Shown piece after piece: positions 51,540 through 62,433 of a DNA stretch of 64,000 nucleotides. The DNA comes from Spirochaetia bacterium (GTDB taxonomy: Bacteria > Spirochaetota > Spirochaetia > DSM-16054 > Sediminispirochaetaceae): NCBI GenBank assembly GCA_034520965.1, contig JAXHMY010000001.1:800001-864000 (forward strand), written 5' to 3'. Position 1 is the stretch's first letter. Every line of letters begins with the position of its first letter. Made by a program: the position numbers and the translations under genes. The notes below the pieces were generated by a model. It was not told where the DNA came from, searched no databases, and saw only the letters and a program-made list of their open reading frames with translations.

Positions 51540-51626
51540 TAACGTCTCGCGAGTACGGAAGTTGGCGACCAACGGGAGCCAATTTAGGCGAAGGCGCTTG
51601 TCGCCGGAGCCGGGTACTCGCTGTTA
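51540..51626 (-). repeat. attC-like site 11
   Basis: TAAC...GTTA main subtype. Confidence 0.88.
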
Positions 51627-51654
51627 TCGGAAGGTTTTGGTGGTTCATTTCAAC

Positions 51655-51927
51655 TTACATAAGCGCTATCTTAATCTTCTTTCCCAAAGCCTTTGCTACT
51701 TTTTCTATTGTTGATAGTTTGATATCCTCCGAATGATTTTCCATCCTCGATATGACACTTTTTGTTGTATTAATCCTATTTGCTAACTCTTCTTGTGTTA
51801 ACCCGTTTCTTTCTCTTGCTTCTTTTAAGAAAATCCCGATTTTATAATCCTCATAACCTTCCCAAAACTCTTCACCGGATATTCCTTCATTTTTTATTCT
51901 TTTATCTACGTAATCATTGAGGTTCAT
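51655..51927 (-). CDS. XRE-family HTH antitoxin
   Basis: LKEARERNGLTQEELA.RI.TTKS.ISRMEN. Confidence 0.88.
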   Translation of the reverse strand: MNLNDYVDKRIKNEGISGEEFWEGYEDYKIGIFLKEARERNGLTQEELANRINTTKSVISRMENHSEDIKLSTIEKVAKALGKKIKIALM

Positions 51928-52276: not shown

Positions 52277-52349
52277 AAGAGCATGTTAGCATGCGTGCTA
52301 ACAATATTCAAGACATTATTTTAAGCTATTTCCTACCAAAACTTTCAGA

Positions 52350-52479
52350 TAACGTCCCGCAAGTACCCGAAGTTGTCCGACCACTTGCTCCGCAAGTGGC
52401 TTGCCATAAAATCTGAGATTTTATGGTCGGGCAATTTGGGCGGAGGCGCTTGTCGCCGGAGCCGGGGTACTCGCTGTTA
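52350..52479 (-). repeat. attC-like site 12, long branched variant, near-identical to site 18
   Basis: Extra hairpins CCACTTGC-TCC-GCAAGTGG and CCATAAAATC-TGA-GATTTTATGG. Confidence 0.88.
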
Positions 52480-52731
52480 TGCGATGAATTGTGAAGCGTC
52501 AACAGAACTTTCTTTATAAAGAATTTCGGGATCTAAATCTGCTCCATTTGGCCATTCAATTGTATCGAATTTTACTGATACTGCATTAAATATTGAAACA
52601 TCCCGTAATTCCGAAAAGATCCCGAAATCAAGATAGGGGGAAACATCAAAATACCGTTTCTCATCATTCTCAAAGATAAGTAACAATTTGTAATCTGAAA
52701 GAGTTTTTACATCTTTAACACCCAAATACAT
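52477..52731 (-). CDS. DUF2442 protein, orphan copy of 60643-60897
   Basis: Near-identical sequence; DUF4160 partner absent. Confidence 0.85.
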   Translation of the reverse strand: MYLGVKDVKTLSDYKLLLIFENDEKRYFDVSPYLDFGIFSELRDVSIFNAVSVKFDTIEWPNGADLDPEILYKESSVDASQFIA

Positions 52732-52771
52732 AAAATCCTCCTTCTTTATTTTTTCTACCTTCACCTGACAA

Positions 52772-55883: not shown

Positions 55884-56062
55884 TCAATACCAGCTTGTCT
55901 AAAAATACTCTTTGTAGTACCAATTGGTAGGTCTGATTTTGGATGCGGAACAGTAACTTTTCCGGTTTTGGTATTGTGCTTAAACTGATAATGAGAACCA
56001 CGAATATTATGTACAAACCATCCATCCTTCTTTAGGATTTTGATTATTTCTGAGCTTCTCAT
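55865..56062 (-). CDS. hicA: HicA toxin
   Basis: LKKDGW....RGSH.QFKH....VTVPHPK.DLP.GT..SI..QAG. Confidence 0.92.
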   Translation of the reverse strand: MRSSEIIKILKKDGWFVHNIRGSHYQFKHNTKTGKVTVPHPKSDLPIGTTKSIFRQAGIDWREYI

Positions 56063-56107
56063 GTCTAATAATACACACGATGTGTATAAATGTCAATTGA
56101 TTTAGCA

Positions 56108-57804
56108 AAGCAATTCGAAATGTGAGAAAGCATCGAGAGGGAAGTAACTCTAATATCTCTAACTAGACATTTTATCCTTACTATAGTATAGTGTCCGTAT
56201 GGGAGGGGCCGGATACAGCTTTGCTGTACTGTTACAATTTTTAGAGGACTCAATTACGACATTCCCGGATGTACGCAAAGGGAAGAACACCGTATATGAA
56301 GTACGCGATGCGGTACTATCGGCCTTTTCGATGTTCTTCATGCAATGCCCCTCCTTCCTTGCTCATCAGAGAGCGATGGGCATGAGGAAAGGGAAGAACA
56401 ATGCCGAAAGCATATTCGGTGTTCACAAGATTCCAACTGACACCCATATTCGAAATCTGCTCGATCCAATACCGCCGGAGCTACTATTCCCGGTCTTTGA
56501 CAAGGTCTATGAGTTTCTCCTCACTGAAGGGGTTATCAAGGAGATGATTACCCACGATAATTTACTGTTGATTGCCCTTGATGGGACCTGGTTTTTTTCC
56601 TCCGAGCAGCTCTTCTGTCCCTCCTGCCAAACCAAAACACATAAAAGTGGAAGCGTAACCCATTACCACAGTGCCATTACCCCGGTCATTGTCAGACCAG
56701 GGGTAAACTATGTGGTCGGTCTTCCCTCGGAATATATTACCGTCAATGATGGTGCTACGAAACAGGACTGTGAAAACAAGGCGGTGAAACGGTGGATAGA
56801 GACAATTGGGAGAAAGTACCTGTCGGAACAGCACACTGTTGTACTGTTAGGCGATGATCTGTACAGCAGGCAGCCGGTATGTGAGCACACCATGGCCTCC
56901 GGCTGCAGCTTTATCTATGTATGTAAAACAGCATCACACAAGTATTTATACGAGTGGATCGATGAGTTCACCGCCGAGGATCTGCACGAAAGTTACAAAC
57001 GCATATGGGATGGCAAGAGGCGGCTGACCTATCGCTACCGGTACCGCAACGATGTCCCTCTCAAAGACGGTGATGAGTCGCTGAAGGTAAACTGGATGGA
57101 ACTAACCATCCTGAGCGAAGAGGGGCAGCTGATTAAGCACTTCTCCTTTGTTACCGACATTCCCGTAACTGATACAAATATCGAGGATATGATCTCTTAC
57201 GGTTGAAGCCGGTGGAAGATAGAAAACGGAAACAACAACATTCTCAAGACAAAGGGCTACCATCTGGAACATAACTTTGGCCATGGGGATAAGCATTTAT
57301 CGAACTTCCTGATGACCTTGAACCTTCTTTCCTTCCTCTTTCATACCACTGCCGGGTTGTTCGACAGACGATATATACTACTTCGCAAAACCCTGCCGAG
57401 CCGTCAGACATTCTTTCATGATGCTCAGGCGTTAACCAAATATTTCTTCTATGAAAGTTGGGAGCATCTTCTCAAAACGATGATCATTGGCCTGGAACTC
57501 GAAGACCCGGGCGGATGACCGGTCAACCAAATCCACGCTCTTTTTTGATGTAGAAAGCTCTCCTCACCATCATTCACTCTCAATCTCTCCTCTTTCTACC
57601 TAAAGCTGAGCTCACTGAATTATTTCCCTGAATATGAACTGAACAGAGTTTTAAAGATGATGGAATGTGAGCTTTTCACCATTCACACACTGTGTGAGCT
57701 CTTCAATTTTGGTGCAGGGATTAGCCTCTCCCAACCGCTGTAAAGAAATAAGCCTAGCTGTATCACAGCCTTTACCCGAAATTATGTCACTTTTCGCATT
57801 GCTG
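56108..57804 (+). mobile_element. Insertion sequence (ISNCY-like DDE) with 9-bp target duplication
   Basis: GATTTAGCA at 56099-56107 and 57805-57813; imperfect IRs AAGCAATTCGAAATGTGAGA / revcomp CAGCAATGCGAAAAGTGACA. Confidence 0.85.
56199..57518 (+). pseudogene. ISNCY-like transposase with in-frame TGA at 57204-57206
   Basis: IALDGT, LGDDLYS; frame continues SRWKIENG...GYHLEHNFGHG after the stop. Confidence 0.85.
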
Positions 57805-57824
57805 GATTTAGCAGAAATTTCCGA

Positions 57825-57912
57825 TAACGTCCCGCGAGTACCCGAAGTTGGCGACAGACGGGAGCCAATTTGGGCGAAGGCGCTTGTCGCCGCAGCCGGG
57901 TACTTGCTGTTA
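57825..57912 (-). repeat. attC-like site 15
   Basis: TAAC...GTTA main subtype. Confidence 0.9.
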
Positions 57913-57935
57913 TGTGAAGAAGCCTTTTCCTCTAA

Positions 57936-58349
57936 TCATTTTAGAACTATTTCTAATTCTTTATTGAATATTTTGGCTATTTTCTCCAGAGTTTTAACAG
58001 TAGGATTGCATCTTCTTGGATTTTCCAGTCTTTGATATGATTGATAAGAGATACCAAGTTCTTTAGCTAATTCTATTTGACTTTTTTTATCTCTTATTTT
58101 TCTTAGTCGAAGTGCTACTTCAATATGTGGTTTGATATAGATCCGGTGATAGTTTTTGCCTTTATATTCTTGTGGATCCTTTATTTCAAAACCTCTTTCA
58201 AAATCAGATTCGATGCTTCCATTCAATGCTTCTTCAGCATTTTTAATTGCTTCTTCCACGGTTCTTCCATAAGTGTTTATATGTTGAAACTGTGGAAAAG
58301 AAACAATAAAATCATCGTCTTCTTTATCAATCAATGCATAGTAATACAT
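57936..58349 (-). CDS. hicB: HicB antitoxin with XRE-HTH
   Basis: FIVSFP....NTYG.TVEEA..NAEEAL; SQIELAKELG.SYQ.YQRLE. Confidence 0.88.
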   Translation of the reverse strand: MYYYALIDKEDDDFIVSFPQFQHINTYGRTVEEAIKNAEEALNGSIESDFERGFEIKDPQEYKGKNYHRIYIKPHIEVALRLRKIRDKKSQIELAKELGISYQSYQRLENPRRCNPTVKTLEKIAKIFNKELEIVLK

Positions 58350-58406
58350 ATTAGCTCCTATAAAAAGTCAATCACAAGCTTTCCAGAAAGCTCATAATTT
58401 AGCCGG

Positions 58407-59524
58407 CTATCCGGCCTTTGCGGCATCACATGCTGCCGCCTGCATTTTCAAATACTTTTGAGAGTGCTCCATCCTTAGTGGATCGAAGGACTCTCTGTTT
58501 TTTAGCATCATGTAGATAACCGGTACTCAATTTCCGTGCTGTAGCTATTATGCTCTTCCCGCTACCTTTGTGTTTCTTCATATACTCATAGCGGGTCATA
58601 ACTCTGTACCCGCCGGTTTGTTCTTTTATTTCTGACCATTCCCAATACGCATTGCACCATTGCCGTTCTTATTTCCCTTCGGTCCCCGTTTGGTTATATG
58701 CCCGTGATGGGATCATCTCGTTCTGAGTTCTGTACCCACGGTGCCAGGCCCATATGAGCAGCGAACTTCTTCGGGCTCTCATAACGGTCAATATCATCAA
58801 TAAAAGCCCTCAGTGTAGCAGCAGTTATCAACCCAACTCCGGGAATCGTCTGCAACAACTCTACATCTTTGTCCTCAGCAACCATGCTCTCAAGCACCTT
58901 CTCCAGCTTCTTGACCTGTGCACTAAACTGGTCTAAAGTATCGAAGAGCGGCTTGACCGCTTCGGCAGCGCTTCCGTAAACCTTATGGTCCACGAGACCG
59001 GAAAGGATGCGCTGCCTCTCTTTTTTACTCTGCAGCTGTCCTCTCTTCGTCTCGATCCCATAGCCGAGCAGCATACCGTGAATCTGGTTCTTTATTCCAA
59101 CCAACGCTTTCACCGCTATCGACCTCGTTTTCAATACTCTTCGGATATCCTCACTCGTTTGACTGCACAGCCTCGATTCAGGAAGCATATCCTTCTCCAA
59201 AAACTCCGCAAGTGTTCGTGCATCGTGCTTGTCCGTCTTCTTGACCGACTCGTTGACCACCTTGAACTTCAAGGTGTTTACCACCGTCACTTCAATTCCG
59301 GCACTCAGCAGCCGGTTGCGGAAATAACGGGCGTTACCGGTTGACTCAACCGCCGCATGCACCTCATACCCTGCCTCTACGTACTCGCTACATTTACTGA
59401 GGAACTCTTCATATCCGATTTCTTTTGTCGGATAGATTCCCGTTTCCACTGCTTTCCGGTTTTCCGCCAGAAAACAGACAGTGAATTGGCTCTTGTGCAG
59501 ATCCACTCCAATACTCATCTTCAT
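58407..59524 (-). CDS. IS110 DEDD recombinase with several C-terminal frameshifts
   Basis: IGVDLHK, VESTG, KTDKHDA, TIPGVG, GLAPWVQNS; later frames give GHITKRGP...IIATARKL. Confidence 0.9.
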
Positions 59525-59559
59525 CGCTTCTCTCCTGTTCTGTTCAAAACAGCTCCGGT

Positions 59560-59700
59560 TTGGTGAATTGATTCCATTCTCCTATTCGGTCTCGTAGACC
59601 ATTGAATGCTTCGGTTACGGCTCTTCATTCTCCTCTGACGGTTGTAGACCAATAAAAATGCCGAACAGTAACCTGCTGTCTCAAACTAAGTTTGCGACAG
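59560..59700 (-). ncRNA. Candidate IS110 bridge RNA
   Basis: 5' hairpin (59676-59700) plus two related stem/internal-loop units holding target-like CTCCTCT and donor-like CTCCTAT; boundaries approximate. Confidence 0.6.
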
Positions 59701-59704
59701 TATA

Positions 59705-59926
59705 TCAATCCACAAAGCTTATGAAGACCTTTTTATCATTCCTCCTCTCTATTCCGGCTTGTTTGAGAATTCTCTTTGCTAATCCGATTGGAATCTCTTT
59801 CTTCCCGTGAACTGGTATAGGTATAGATCTTCTCCCTTCCTTGATCATTATATGATGGCTACCAGATATTCTATCTAATACCCAGCCATGGTCTTTTAAT
59901 AATTTTATTAAATCTTTTCCTGTCAT
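59705..59926 (-). CDS. hicA: HicA toxin with C-terminus altered by the IS110 insertion
   Basis: LKDHGW...RISGSHH......IPIPVHG.KEIP.GL...ILKQAG. Confidence 0.9.
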   Translation of the reverse strand: MTGKDLIKLLKDHGWVLDRISGSHHIMIKEGRRSIPIPVHGKKEIPIGLAKRILKQAGIERRNDKKVFISFVD

Positions 59927-60047
59927 TTTAGATAATTATACAACCTTTATGTTGTATAGTCAATTTTATTAATTTTCTTTTCGAAGGTTTTTTGCGGTAG
60001 TAACCAATTTCCTAATCAAAACTCATATTCTTTAAGGCTTTTTCACA

Positions 60048-60123
60048 TAACGGGGCGGCGGGTATCCGCAGTGGCCAGGTAAAGCCGGAGGCTTGTACGG
60101 GCCATTGAGGATACCCGCCAGTT
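60048..60123 (-). repeat. attC-like site 16, distinct GC-rich subtype
   Basis: TAAC-ggggc-GGCGGGTATCC...GGATACCCGCC-a-GTT. Confidence 0.8.
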
Positions 60124-60204
60124 GTCTGAAGTTGCGGAGCAACGGAAGACAGCTGGCGGGCTTGCCCGCCGCTCCGTTCTACAAAAGTGCGAAGCAATTT
60201 TGGA

Positions 60205-60286
60205 CAACGTTCCGCGAATAGACGAAGTTGGCGACCAACGGGAGCCAATTTGGGCAGAGCGAAGCGTAGCCGGGTACTCGCTGTTA
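60205..60286 (-). repeat. attC-like site 17
   Basis: CAAC...GTTA with main-subtype interior. Confidence 0.8.
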
Positions 60287-60362
60287 TATGACGTTTCGGG
60301 GGCGTTCTTAGACATACTATTTTACTTTGTCTCTGGGAAAAATTGATTTTTATTTCCACAGT

Positions 60363-60479
60363 TTAGACATACCCCCCTATGAACACATAACAGATTACCA
60401 CACCACCTGGATCAATTAGCATCTTTTTATTCTTAGATTTAATTAAAAATGTATTGTATCCAAAAAATGTTATTTCCAT
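60363..60479 (-). pseudogene. 38-aa N-terminal remnant of an MBL-fold hydrolase
   Basis: MEITFFGYNTFLIKSKNKKMLIDPG resembles the MBL-fold start. Confidence 0.5.
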
Positions 60480-60516
60480 TCTTCACTCTTGCCATATATT
60501 TGGGGGCAATTGCACA

Positions 60517-60645
60517 TAACGTCCCGCAAGTACCCGAAGTTGTCCGACCACTTGCTCCGCAAGTGGCTTGCCATAAAATCTGAGATTTTATGGTCGGGCA
60601 ATTTGGGCGGAGGCGCTTGTCGCCGGAGCCGGGTACTCGCTGTTA
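60517..60645 (-). repeat. attC-like site 18, long variant
   Basis: Near-identical to 52350-52479. Confidence 0.88.
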
Positions 60646-60897
60646 TGCGATGAATTGTGAAGCGTCAACAGAACTTTCTTTATAAAGAATTTCGGGATCT
60701 AAATCTGCTCCGTTTGGCCATTCAATTGTATCGAATTTTACTGATACTGCATTAAATATTGAAACATCCCGTAATTCCGAAAAGATACCGAAATCAAGAT
60801 AGGGGGAAACATCAAAATACCGTTTCTCATCATTCTTAAAGATAAGTAACAATTTGTAATCTGAAAGAGGTTTTACATCTTTAACACCCAAATACAT
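60643..60897 (-). CDS. DUF2442 protein (putative antitoxin)
   Basis: VKDVKPL.DYKL.L.F.N.E.R.FD, TIEWPNGADLDPE.LY. Confidence 0.85.
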   Translation of the reverse strand: MYLGVKDVKPLSDYKLLLIFKNDEKRYFDVSPYLDFGIFSELRDVSIFNAVSVKFDTIEWPNGADLDPEILYKESSVDASQFIA

Positions 60898-60907
60898 AAA
60901 ATCCTCC

Positions 60908-61174
60908 TTATTGTAATGGATCAATTTTGTAGGGTGATTCACCATTTTGGGCTAATTGCCAATCAGCAAGTAGTTCATCTTTATGTAATTCTGCCCAAGC
61001 TTCTATAAGCTTTATTTGTCGTTTCGGTAGATTGCCTTCAGTCATTTCGCAAATGTTAATATCAAAGATTCCTTTGAAATCCTGATAATATGCATGGAAG
61101 TGAGGAGGGTTATGCTCCTTCTTTCCCAGCTACATTCTAATGACAATTCCAAAAAACATTGAAATAGTAGGCAT
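60908..61174 (-). pseudogene. DUF4160 protein (putative toxin) with in-frame TAG
   Basis: MPTISMFFGIVIRM*LGKKEHNPPHFHAYY...AWAELHKDELLADW; TAG at 61130-61132. Confidence 0.85.
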
Positions 61175-61232
61175 AGCCTATATTATATCATCTCCTTCCA
61201 TTATAGTCTATTTTGCTTCACAATTTGTCGCA

Positions 61233-61320
61233 TAACGTCCCCGGGGTATAAGACGTTTGCCCGCAGGGCAAATGTGCTAAAGGCCAAAGAGCGGAGCGAC
61301 GCCGCATATACCCCATGTTA
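61233..61320 (-). repeat. attC-like site 19
   Basis: Same subtype as site 4. Confidence 0.85.
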
Positions 61321-61372
61321 GACGATGTCACGAACCTTCTTCAAAGCCAAGCAACATGGATGTTGTTTGGCT

Positions 61373-61702
61373 TTATTCTATTAACATTTCTTGCAGCACA
61401 CTTTTGACGAGTTCAATTTCTTTTTTATTTATTTTCCCAATTTTCTTAATCAATCTTTTCCTATCAACCGTCCTCAATTGATCTAAGACTATCCATCCAT
61501 TTTTTTTTTCAAATTGAAGAGGAACACGTGTTGGATATTTATATGATTTCGTTGTCATCGGGGCTATTATGATTGTCTGGATTGATTCATTCATCTCATT
61601 TGGAGAGATTACCAAGCAGGGGCTTGTCTTTTTTATTTCATGGCCAACAGTTGGATCTAAGTTAATTAAATACACTTCATATTGTTGTATTACCATTCCC
61701 AT
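61373..61702 (-). CDS. mazF: MazF/PemK toxin
   Basis: NLDPTVGHEIKKT.PCLVISP, DQLRTVD..RL. Confidence 0.9.
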   Translation of the reverse strand: MGMVIQQYEVYLINLDPTVGHEIKKTSPCLVISPNEMNESIQTIIIAPMTTKSYKYPTRVPLQFEKKNGWIVLDQLRTVDRKRLIKKIGKINKKEIELVKSVLQEMLIE

Positions 61703-61950
61703 TCAAAATCGTCCTGCTCATTTAGATTGTCCAGAAATAATGAATCATCACCATTCTTGTGCATCTTCATAAACTCTTCGGGCCATCCTTCTCTTGGCTT
61801 TTTCTTTATTGGTCGAATCAGAATTTCCGTATTATGCACTTCCAACTCTACTTTCTCTTCAATGTTTAATTGTTGTAAAATACTCTTTGGAATCCTAATT
61901 CCTTTTGAATTGCCTATAGGAACCACTGAAACTAACATATTACACCTCAA
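61690..61950 (-). CDS. mazE: MazE/AbrB antitoxin
   Basis: IGNSKGIRIPK. Confidence 0.88.
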   Translation of the reverse strand: MRCNMLVSVVPIGNSKGIRIPKSILQQLNIEEKVELEVHNTEILIRPIKKKPREGWPEEFMKMHKNGDDSLFLDNLNEQDDFEWEW

Positions 61951-62044
61951 CTAATGTAATTATATAGTAGTTACGTAATTTCGTCAATCTTTTGCTTGCT
62001 AAGGATTGCAAGCTTCTTCTTTCTCTTAGGTTCGTGATTTCGTC

Positions 62045-62132
62045 TAACGTCCCGCGAGTAGCCGAAGTTGACGACCAACGGGAGCCAATTTGGGCGAAGG
62101 CGCTTGTCGCCGGAGCCGGGTACTCGCTGTTA
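62045..62132 (-). repeat. attC-like site 20
   Basis: TAAC...GTTA main subtype. Confidence 0.88.
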
Positions 62133-62160
62133 TCTGGAGGTTTTGGTGGTTCATTTCAAC

Positions 62161-62433
62161 TTACATAAGCGCTATCTTAATCTTCTTTCCTAAAGCCTTT
62201 GCTACTTTTTCTATTGTTGATAGTTTAATATCTTCCGAATGATTTTCCATCCTCGATATGACACTTTTTGTTGTATTAATCCTATTTGCTAACTCTTCTT
62301 GTGTTAACCCACTTCTTTCTCTTGCTTCTTTTAAGAAAATCCCGATTTTGTAATCCTCATAACCTTCCCAAAACTCTTCACCGGATATTCCTTCATTTCT
62401 TATTCTTTTATCTACGTAATCATTGAGGTCCAT
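62161..62433 (-). CDS. XRE-HTH antitoxin (copy)
   Basis: Near-identical to 51655-51927. Confidence 0.88.
   Translation of the reverse strand: MDLNDYVDKRIRNEGISGEEFWEGYEDYKIGIFLKEARERSGLTQEELANRINTTKSVISRMENHSEDIKLSTIEKVAKALGKKIKIALM

Follow-up and report, generated by a model that had tools for sequence, protein, structure and literature searches.

What guides an IS110-family element to the boundary between the genes of a hicAB pair, and does the non-coding end upstream of its recombinase gene encode that guide? The question is raised by a locus of a Spirochaetia bacterium (contig JAXHMY010000001.1), studied here within a window of 64,000 nt, the whole stretch of DNA that was analysed. A preliminary description had proposed that this end specifies a bridge RNA, with two loops matching the target and donor junctions over 7 nt each. 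From the sequence patterns of the element and its relatives, we consider it very likely that the region is a predicted bridge RNA whose target loop would read a translation start and whose donor loop would read the joined element ends, guiding insertion at ribosome-binding sites around a CT core. The element and the host genes around it, in window coordinates, are the following.

58355 to 59746, minus strand: IS110-family element with a copy of AGGAG at each junction, 1387 nt by Illumina contigs
58407 to 59524, minus strand: IS110 DEDD recombinase gene, 370 aa if intact; its frame is disrupted in the window, probably through errors of assembly
59705 to 59926, minus strand: hicA, the upstream host gene, whose natural stop (..IERS*) spans the target
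57936 to 58349, minus strand: hicB, the downstream host gene, with its ATG 5 nt past the rebuilt GGAG
59935 to 59963, minus strand: host sigma70-like promoter TTGACT-17-TATAAT (11/12) before hicA, from a consensus scan only

The junctions carry CTCCT at 59742-46 (left) and 58355-59 (right). To these we aligned contigs from four public sequencing runs, X1, X2 and X4 among them. One X2 contig represents the empty site, joining 58354 to 59742 with 1387 nt skipped and 5 letters that fit on either side. A second copy in the same genome (C1:48143-49577), 91.7% identical, agrees with the window copy at both boundaries, and together the contig and this copy back the element boundaries of the preliminary description. 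The left end of the second copy begins right after AGGAG, its right end terminates in TTTTTATAGGAG, and an ATG stands directly behind GGAG, with no clear gene downstream in this noisy assembly. Its indels are far more numerous than those of the window copy, reflecting decay or assembly error. Further traces in the genome are two exact right ends and a 94-nt fragment on contig C9. Related elements measure 1365-1451 nt.

In the empty site, the last hicA codons and the stop run across AGGAG, and the hicB ATG lies 5 nt past GGAG, which identifies the target as the hicB ribosome-binding site. Since the natural hicA stop spans this target, the hicA C-terminus now runs on into the element. The right end restores an ATAGGAG Shine-Dalgarno motif in front of hicB, and a consensus scan found no terminator-like site across the element on the hicA/hicB strand. 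The insertion splits hicAB (57936-59926), parting the toxin from the antitoxin and changing the HicA C-terminus, with the empty allele present in X2; if HicA stays active, survival would imply that hicB is still expressed.

The surroundings are repetitive. Between 50100 and 63000, a ~110-nt repeat bounded by TAAC...GTTA occurs at least 6 times (a related motif 8 times), sitting between single genes and toxin-antitoxin pairs. From its appearance we take the array to be an integron cassette array with attC sites; the element lies within one of its hicAB cassettes. Cassette segments are duplicated at 97-98% identity (51558-51857 and 62064-62363; 52343-52746 and 60510-60912), and a second broken transposase-like ORF pair occupies 56199-57518, its 335-aa part giving no Pfam match.

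The sequencing runs also correct the window. In all four of them base 59637 is absent and two extra C are present, after 59642 and after 59643, and the target-loop sequence quoted from the window in the preliminary description is thus corrupted at these three positions; once they are corrected, the loop equals that of its relatives in length. X1 and X2, which carry near full-length element contigs, lack all five extra bases that break the recombinase frame (58522, 58617, 58675, 58709, 58724), and X4 contigs lack four of the five. The recombinase is indeed frameshifted in the window, as had been described, but the frameshifts look like long-read errors. Most likely the real element is intact, with a length of 1387 nt and a recombinase of 370 aa, and the window shows a noisy assembly of it; the recombinase is probably intact in the population. 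The contigs free of frameshifts disfavour a decayed pseudogene as an account of the window copy.

The protein combines PF01548 and PF02371 and scores above the cutoff of NF033542, giving the DEDD RuvC domain and the Tnp domain with catalytic serine of an IS110-family bridge recombinase. D8, E60, D98, D101 and S267 are kept in 74-75 of 75 proteins, and the size in the clade is mostly 360-379 aa. The best solved relatives are IS621 and ISCro4, likewise DEDD plus serine recombinases (E ~1e-18). By protein score, the nearest named relatives are ISLin1 of Leptospira and haloarchaeal IS110 transposases (~30% identity, E 8e-32), which are too distant for common guides; an ISLin1 end also reads TTGAC...ATAGGAG. 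At the ISLin1 locus (L183, 250-300 and 1650-1700), the right-end sequence is repeated to the left of the element and followed by tandem repeats. A protein of the clade, recognised by eye, stands in row 610 of Durrant Supplementary Table 1 without an ISfinder name.

For comparison with relatives, 160 loci were taken from two scans (the best 80 of 125 and the best 80 of 260). The first parser, which forced CAT, RGAG, C-R-T-N-C and ATR-GGAG, read 130 of the 160 and missed 30; removal of 2 misparsed rows left 128 loci with 75 RNA variants. A parser relying on the scaffold only read 143 of the 160 and recovered a subclade with reprogrammed target arms. One intact-looking copy (L184) is plasmid-borne in Thiospirochaeta perfilievii, a cultured species, which makes direct testing possible. 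The parts of the predicted RNA, as placed in the window, are listed below.

59550 to 59717, minus strand: predicted bridge RNA with inferred ends, enclosing the 5' hairpin, the target loop and the donor loop
59705 to 59713 with 59562 to 59571, minus strand: long closing helix of the predicted RNA, from the alignment
59676 to 59700, minus strand: 5' stem-loop, 4 of 5 pairs with two-sided changes
59651 to 59660, minus strand: 5' arm of the target loop (left target guide, CATTTTTATT), the complement of the host ATG with the bases that precede it
59630 to 59636, minus strand: 3' arm of the target loop (right target guide, AGAGGAG), with the same letters as the left flank followed by GGAG
59604 to 59610, minus strand: 5' arm of the donor loop (left donor guide, A-x-CATTC), which complements the start of the left end, 59737-59741
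59579 to 59585, minus strand: 3' arm of the donor loop (right donor guide, ATAGGAG), identical to the right end, 58355-58361

The hairpin, unit B (the target loop, 59626-59660, inside GGTTAC at 59613-18 and GTAACC at 59668-73) and unit A (the donor loop, 59575-59608) lie, like the CTCCT junctions, where the preliminary description had put them, and the order 5' stem-loop, target loop B, donor loop A holds. Folding of the 226-nt region gave z = -2.7, with 0 of 200 shuffles as good. We aligned 48 sequences (47 of 62 prepared references, picked by hand, and the window). In this alignment 94.8% of cells were paired and 19 of 31 pairs showed two-sided changes, a result reached by 0 of 500 shuffles and compared with 19-43% pairing in slid controls, for a structure that was itself drawn from the same aligned sequences. 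The closing helix, the 5' hairpin, the target-loop stem and two inner hairpins are backed by the alignment, and the non-coding end thereby holds a conserved structure with a 5' stem-loop and two internal loops. In IS621 numbering, the scaffold bases G48, U59, A67, G72, A150 and G155 are present in all 75 variants and G121 in all but one, none of them forced by the parser, whereas A43 and A116 are not kept in place (15/75 and 0/75 variants).

Several further observations concern this RNA. An alternative conserved pairing is available to the 3' strand of the 5' hairpin, with a segment immediately upstream of the recombinase ribosome-binding site (alignment columns 61-65 with 202-206, window ~59545 and 59676); it is present in 40-46 of 48 sequences, shows two-sided changes and makes a possible RNA switch. 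A related copy (L005 / L012, G019:C15) lacks the donor loop through a deletion spanning between two similar loop ends, suggesting that the loops can recombine as direct repeats. A search of window positions 56000-62000 against Rfam (4227 families, E up to 1) gave 3 weak matches, none over the element.

All four arms covary with the DNA (75 RNA variants, 128 related loci), the target arms with both target halves and the donor arms with both element ends. The two 7-nt matches of the preliminary description are real and covary across homologues, yet they make up half of the guide; the two 5' arms had been missed. In the window, the target 3' arm matches its flank at 7 of 7 positions, and both 7-mers occur together in 0.075% of 20,000 shuffles of the 212-nt end. 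Across 61 variants and 104 sites, this arm matched the left flank at positions -2 and -3 with frequencies of 0.96 and 0.83, compared with 0.66 and 0.38 after shuffling (p = 0.0002). Position -4 showed nothing, as expected for a linker base, and the loop A arm, set against the left flank as a control, gave no signal. Reduction to a single site per protein cluster leaves the signal on the diagonal (z 8-9 at 90% and 6-7 at 80% identity). The homologues thus have targets related to loop B within a conserved structure. On the donor side, the 5' arm is a perfect 5-nt complement of the left end in 64 of 68 RNA variants, across five sequence types, with A123 in 75 of 75 variants, and 135 of 139 loci have a 3' arm with the sequence of the right end, ATGGGAG and ATAGAAG variants included.

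The variants also define the core. Two loci (L158, L159) pair a target GGAG with a donor GAAG, leaving AG on the gene strand as the shared stretch. Because some variants share only AG between target and donor, the core is CT on the strand opposite to the gene; CTCCT, rightly noted before as common to both junctions of the window, and GGAG are both ruled out as the core. The CT core being opposite to the RNA and gene strand, the order of the guides is reversed relative to IS621. The preliminary description had the target match right and overlooked this reversal, as well as the fact that the target is a Shine-Dalgarno motif plus a start codon.

Elements of the clade insert into a GGAG Shine-Dalgarno motif, co-directionally with the host gene, and the motif is rebuilt as ATAGGAG. 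As in IS900-type targeting, they sit at translation initiation signals: of 107 sites, 102 have an ATG 4-10 nt past GGAG, the proportion for such motifs in this genome being 12-25%. The spacer between GGAG and ATG is 6 nt at 56 sites, 5 nt at 17, 7 nt at 12, 8 nt at 9, 9 nt at 5, 10 nt at 2 and 4 nt at 1. No GTG occurs among the first start codons, where the background behind GGAG, taken from one noisy genome, holds 777 ATG, 130 GTG (130/1003) and 96 TTG.

After an initial CAT, the target 5' arm continues with bases that covary with those preceding the ATG. Anchored on the ATG, they matched with frequencies of 0.46, 0.56 and 0.53, against 0.29, 0.33 and 0.44. The covariation was found at spacers other than 6 (p = 0.0001 and 0.0007; 31 variants, 46 sites) and at spacers of at least 7 (p = 0.0016 and 0.004; 19 variants, 28 sites). 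It also held when each cluster contributed a single site and the shuffles were stratified by GC (1.10 vs 0.66, p = 0.002; 40 clusters). Registers anchored on the core gave a weak signal (sum p 0.03, 0.006, 0.045), and the ATG anchor was preferred; at spacers other than 6, fixed-register anchors were weaker but not null (sum p 0.03, 0.03, 0.07). The arm matches at ~50-60% per position only. Where the guide has G, the base before ATG is A (6.3) oftener than C (5.3), and the site of the window itself has a mismatch at that base.

A further group of ten loci (L158, L159, L165, L166, L168, L175, L178, L180, L181, L182), among those missed by the first parser, carries seven distinct non-CAT 5' arms. 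The loci were selected by eye among 19 rows lacking CAT, the rest being 8 shifted parses and 1 row without a right flank. Their 3' arms match the left flanks in 8 of 9. ATG follows at 2 of 10 sites, where the CAT group has it at 102 of 106. On the right, the flanks agree with their own arm at a mean of 5.1 of 8 positions, compared with 3.4 on CAT-group flanks. The offsets of the match are 0 at 3 loci, 1 at 6 and 4 at 1, a spread equal to that of the CAT group (22, 57, 14, 8 and 5). Since the flanks track the new arm, the 5' arm behaves as a guide and variable spacing seems to be a property of the scaffold; p-values overstate here, because the reprogrammed loci are related. The subclade targets short repeat-like CAC..AG motifs, not translation starts.

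The two ends of the element carry subterminal repeats, which supply the parts of a predicted promoter.

59726 to 59736, minus strand: left subterminal inverted repeat (ATAAAAAG..), holding the -10 box TAAAAA (59735-59730)
58360 to 58371, minus strand: right subterminal inverted repeat and -35 box TTGACT (58371-58366); rebuilds ATAGGAG for hicB

These repeats measure 7-11 bp in 66 of 67 variants. Joining of the ends in a circle would create the promoter TTGACT-17-TAAAAA with an upstream TG, predicted on sequence grounds in 56 of 67 variants. No circle was seen among the contigs of the sequencing runs at the locus. Run X12, only guessed to be RNA, yielded a contig from a relative, with 46 differences, and hence no evidence of expression.

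By analogy with IS621, a circle would form and its junction promoter would make the RNA, a recombinase tetramer would bind both loops, and the DEDD and serine sites would exchange strands at CT, here on the strand complementary to that of the RNA and the recombinase gene. The patterns within the clade suggest that the 7-nt 3' arm would be the strict determinant, and that the 5' arm would pair at its distal end only, leaving 0-4 extra DNA bases between arm and core unpaired. As the element is co-directional with the host gene and rebuilds its ribosome-binding site, host transcription could read through it, supplying the RNA and the recombinase while the downstream gene stays translated. Excision of IS621 is supported by read-through transcription and host genes can supply its RNA, according to excerpts of PMC13626964; an element always landing in sense behind a host promoter would use read-through routinely. 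With one arm spelling the ribosome-binding site and the other tracking the start codon, insertion likely occurs at gene starts and leaves the genes unbroken.

For the target loop, we favour, with moderate confidence, an elastic reading in which its arms would recognise the Shine-Dalgarno motif and the start codon across a spacer varying by up to 4 bases, which no fixed-register model allows; the element would thereby home to gene starts genome-wide and leave the downstream gene unsilenced. That the loops are instead ribosome-binding or regulatory hairpins of the element itself, matching by chance or through the common AGGAG, is hardly credible. GGAG is frequent, with 31,828 occurrences in this genome, and each 7-mer alone appears in ~3% of shuffles, but chance does not make four arms covary with DNA, nor loops switch to CACAAAG and ATAGAAG in step with flanks and ends, and the IS621 scaffold bases are kept. 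A bridge RNA using its 3' target arm only is a less remote but still improbable reading; the enrichment of ATG would then come from selection against insertions outside ribosome-binding sites, and CAT would form a stem with AATG. The CA-UG pairing is indeed invariant in the CAT-type RNA alignment, the 5' arm matches at no better than 50-60% per position, and the accessible portions of two reports describe insertion with a half-match for IS621 (10.64898/2026.08.31.748434) and top-strand insertion for CazIS110-1 (10.1101/2025.10.25.684509). Against this, host selection cannot create covariation of guide bases with the bases before ATG, the ten reprogrammed loci changed their 5' arm and their flanks changed along with it, and 14 of 75 variants have a base other than A opposite the T of CAT in the RNA. 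Strict use of the 3' arm combined with distal pairing of the 5' arm also fits both reports.

More serious, though still unlikely, is the possibility that the 5' arm works in one fixed register, set for a 6-nt spacer, with other spacings as tolerated mismatched sites. A spacer of 6 is over-represented (55/101 sites vs 199/777 in the genome), and some signal, though weak, remains when other spacers are read with a 6-nt anchor (sum p = 0.03). The ATG-anchored signal at spacers of at least 7 (0.61 and 0.63 vs 0.33 and 0.40) is nevertheless as strong as at 6, and single multi-copy elements use spacers of 5-9.

The predicted RNA resembles those of the IS621 and ISCro4 (IS622) bridge recombinases, as far as these are described in excerpts of PMC11208160, PMC11208158 and 10.1101/2025.05.14.653916. 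It is encoded in the upstream end, runs from a 5' stem-loop through a target loop to a donor loop, and shares the scaffold G and A bases, the CT core, 7-nt right guides and the junction promoter. Unlike in IS621 as described there, the CT core of this clade is opposite to the RNA and gene strand with the guide order reversed, pairing of the left guides does not continue across the core in one register (62/75 variants have A at donor position 130), and the left half of the target stands at a variable distance. Furthermore, the subterminal repeats measure 7-11 bp against 2-3 in IS621, and handshake guide 81 is unpaired with donor position 7 (A81 in 75/75, fixed by the parser, against donor C).

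With respect to the subgroups of the family, a long upstream end with the RNA is shared with the IS110 group, whereas the order with the bottom-strand match first and absent or short repeats, given for that group in the literature excerpts consulted, does not apply, the clade being reversed and having repeats of 7-11 bp. Subterminal repeats of 7-17 bp and a top-strand complement placed first are instead IS1111-group features that the clade shows (PMC11187229, in part). In the seekRNA elements of that group, such as ISEc11, ISKpn4 and ISPa11 in the same excerpts, the RNA lies downstream, in contrast to its upstream position here. The recombinase falls outside the cluster of IS4321, ISKpn2, IS5708 and ISSba8 (37-104 bits vs 190-256 within), in a midpoint-rooted tree of 10 proteins drawn without IS621 or ISEc21, the IS1111 status of ISKpn2, IS5708 and ISSba8 being taken from their clustering with IS4321. 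It also has Ser-Asn rather than the GL-P----S(t)G motif given in that source (PMC11187229), part of which notes exceptions to the IS110 and IS1111 layouts in general (Siddiquee 2024). The clade belongs to the IS110 family and fits neither subgroup cleanly; its layout is mixed.

IS900 of Mycobacterium avium subsp. paratuberculosis reportedly targets translation initiation signals (Doran 1997), and in this it resembles the present clade as an IS110-family element aimed at such signals. IS900 has an antisense hed frame across the element, according to the accessible part of PMC8141618, which contained no description of a guide RNA for it. In contrast, a hed-like antisense frame was not found among 67 variants of the clade (median longest antisense frame 140 aa), whose elements are co-directional with the host gene.

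Bridge RNAs as such are already known, and a guide with variable spacing is found in no literature searched. The search, which left subscription journals largely uncovered, returned no bridge RNA reading a Shine-Dalgarno motif plus a start codon and none with variable spacing; the supplements of a 2026 genomic-language-model preprint may include this clade. If true, the elastic target loop would explain at the level of RNA how translation starts are located by IS110 elements, a habit reported for IS900 in 1997. A guide loop tolerant of inserted target bases would bear on the choice of off-targets by bridge recombinases, and the element would represent a natural tool for inserting DNA at gene starts. 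Finally, the mixed layout, with an upstream RNA and an IS1111-like order and repeats, bears on the divergence of the IS110 and IS1111 groups.
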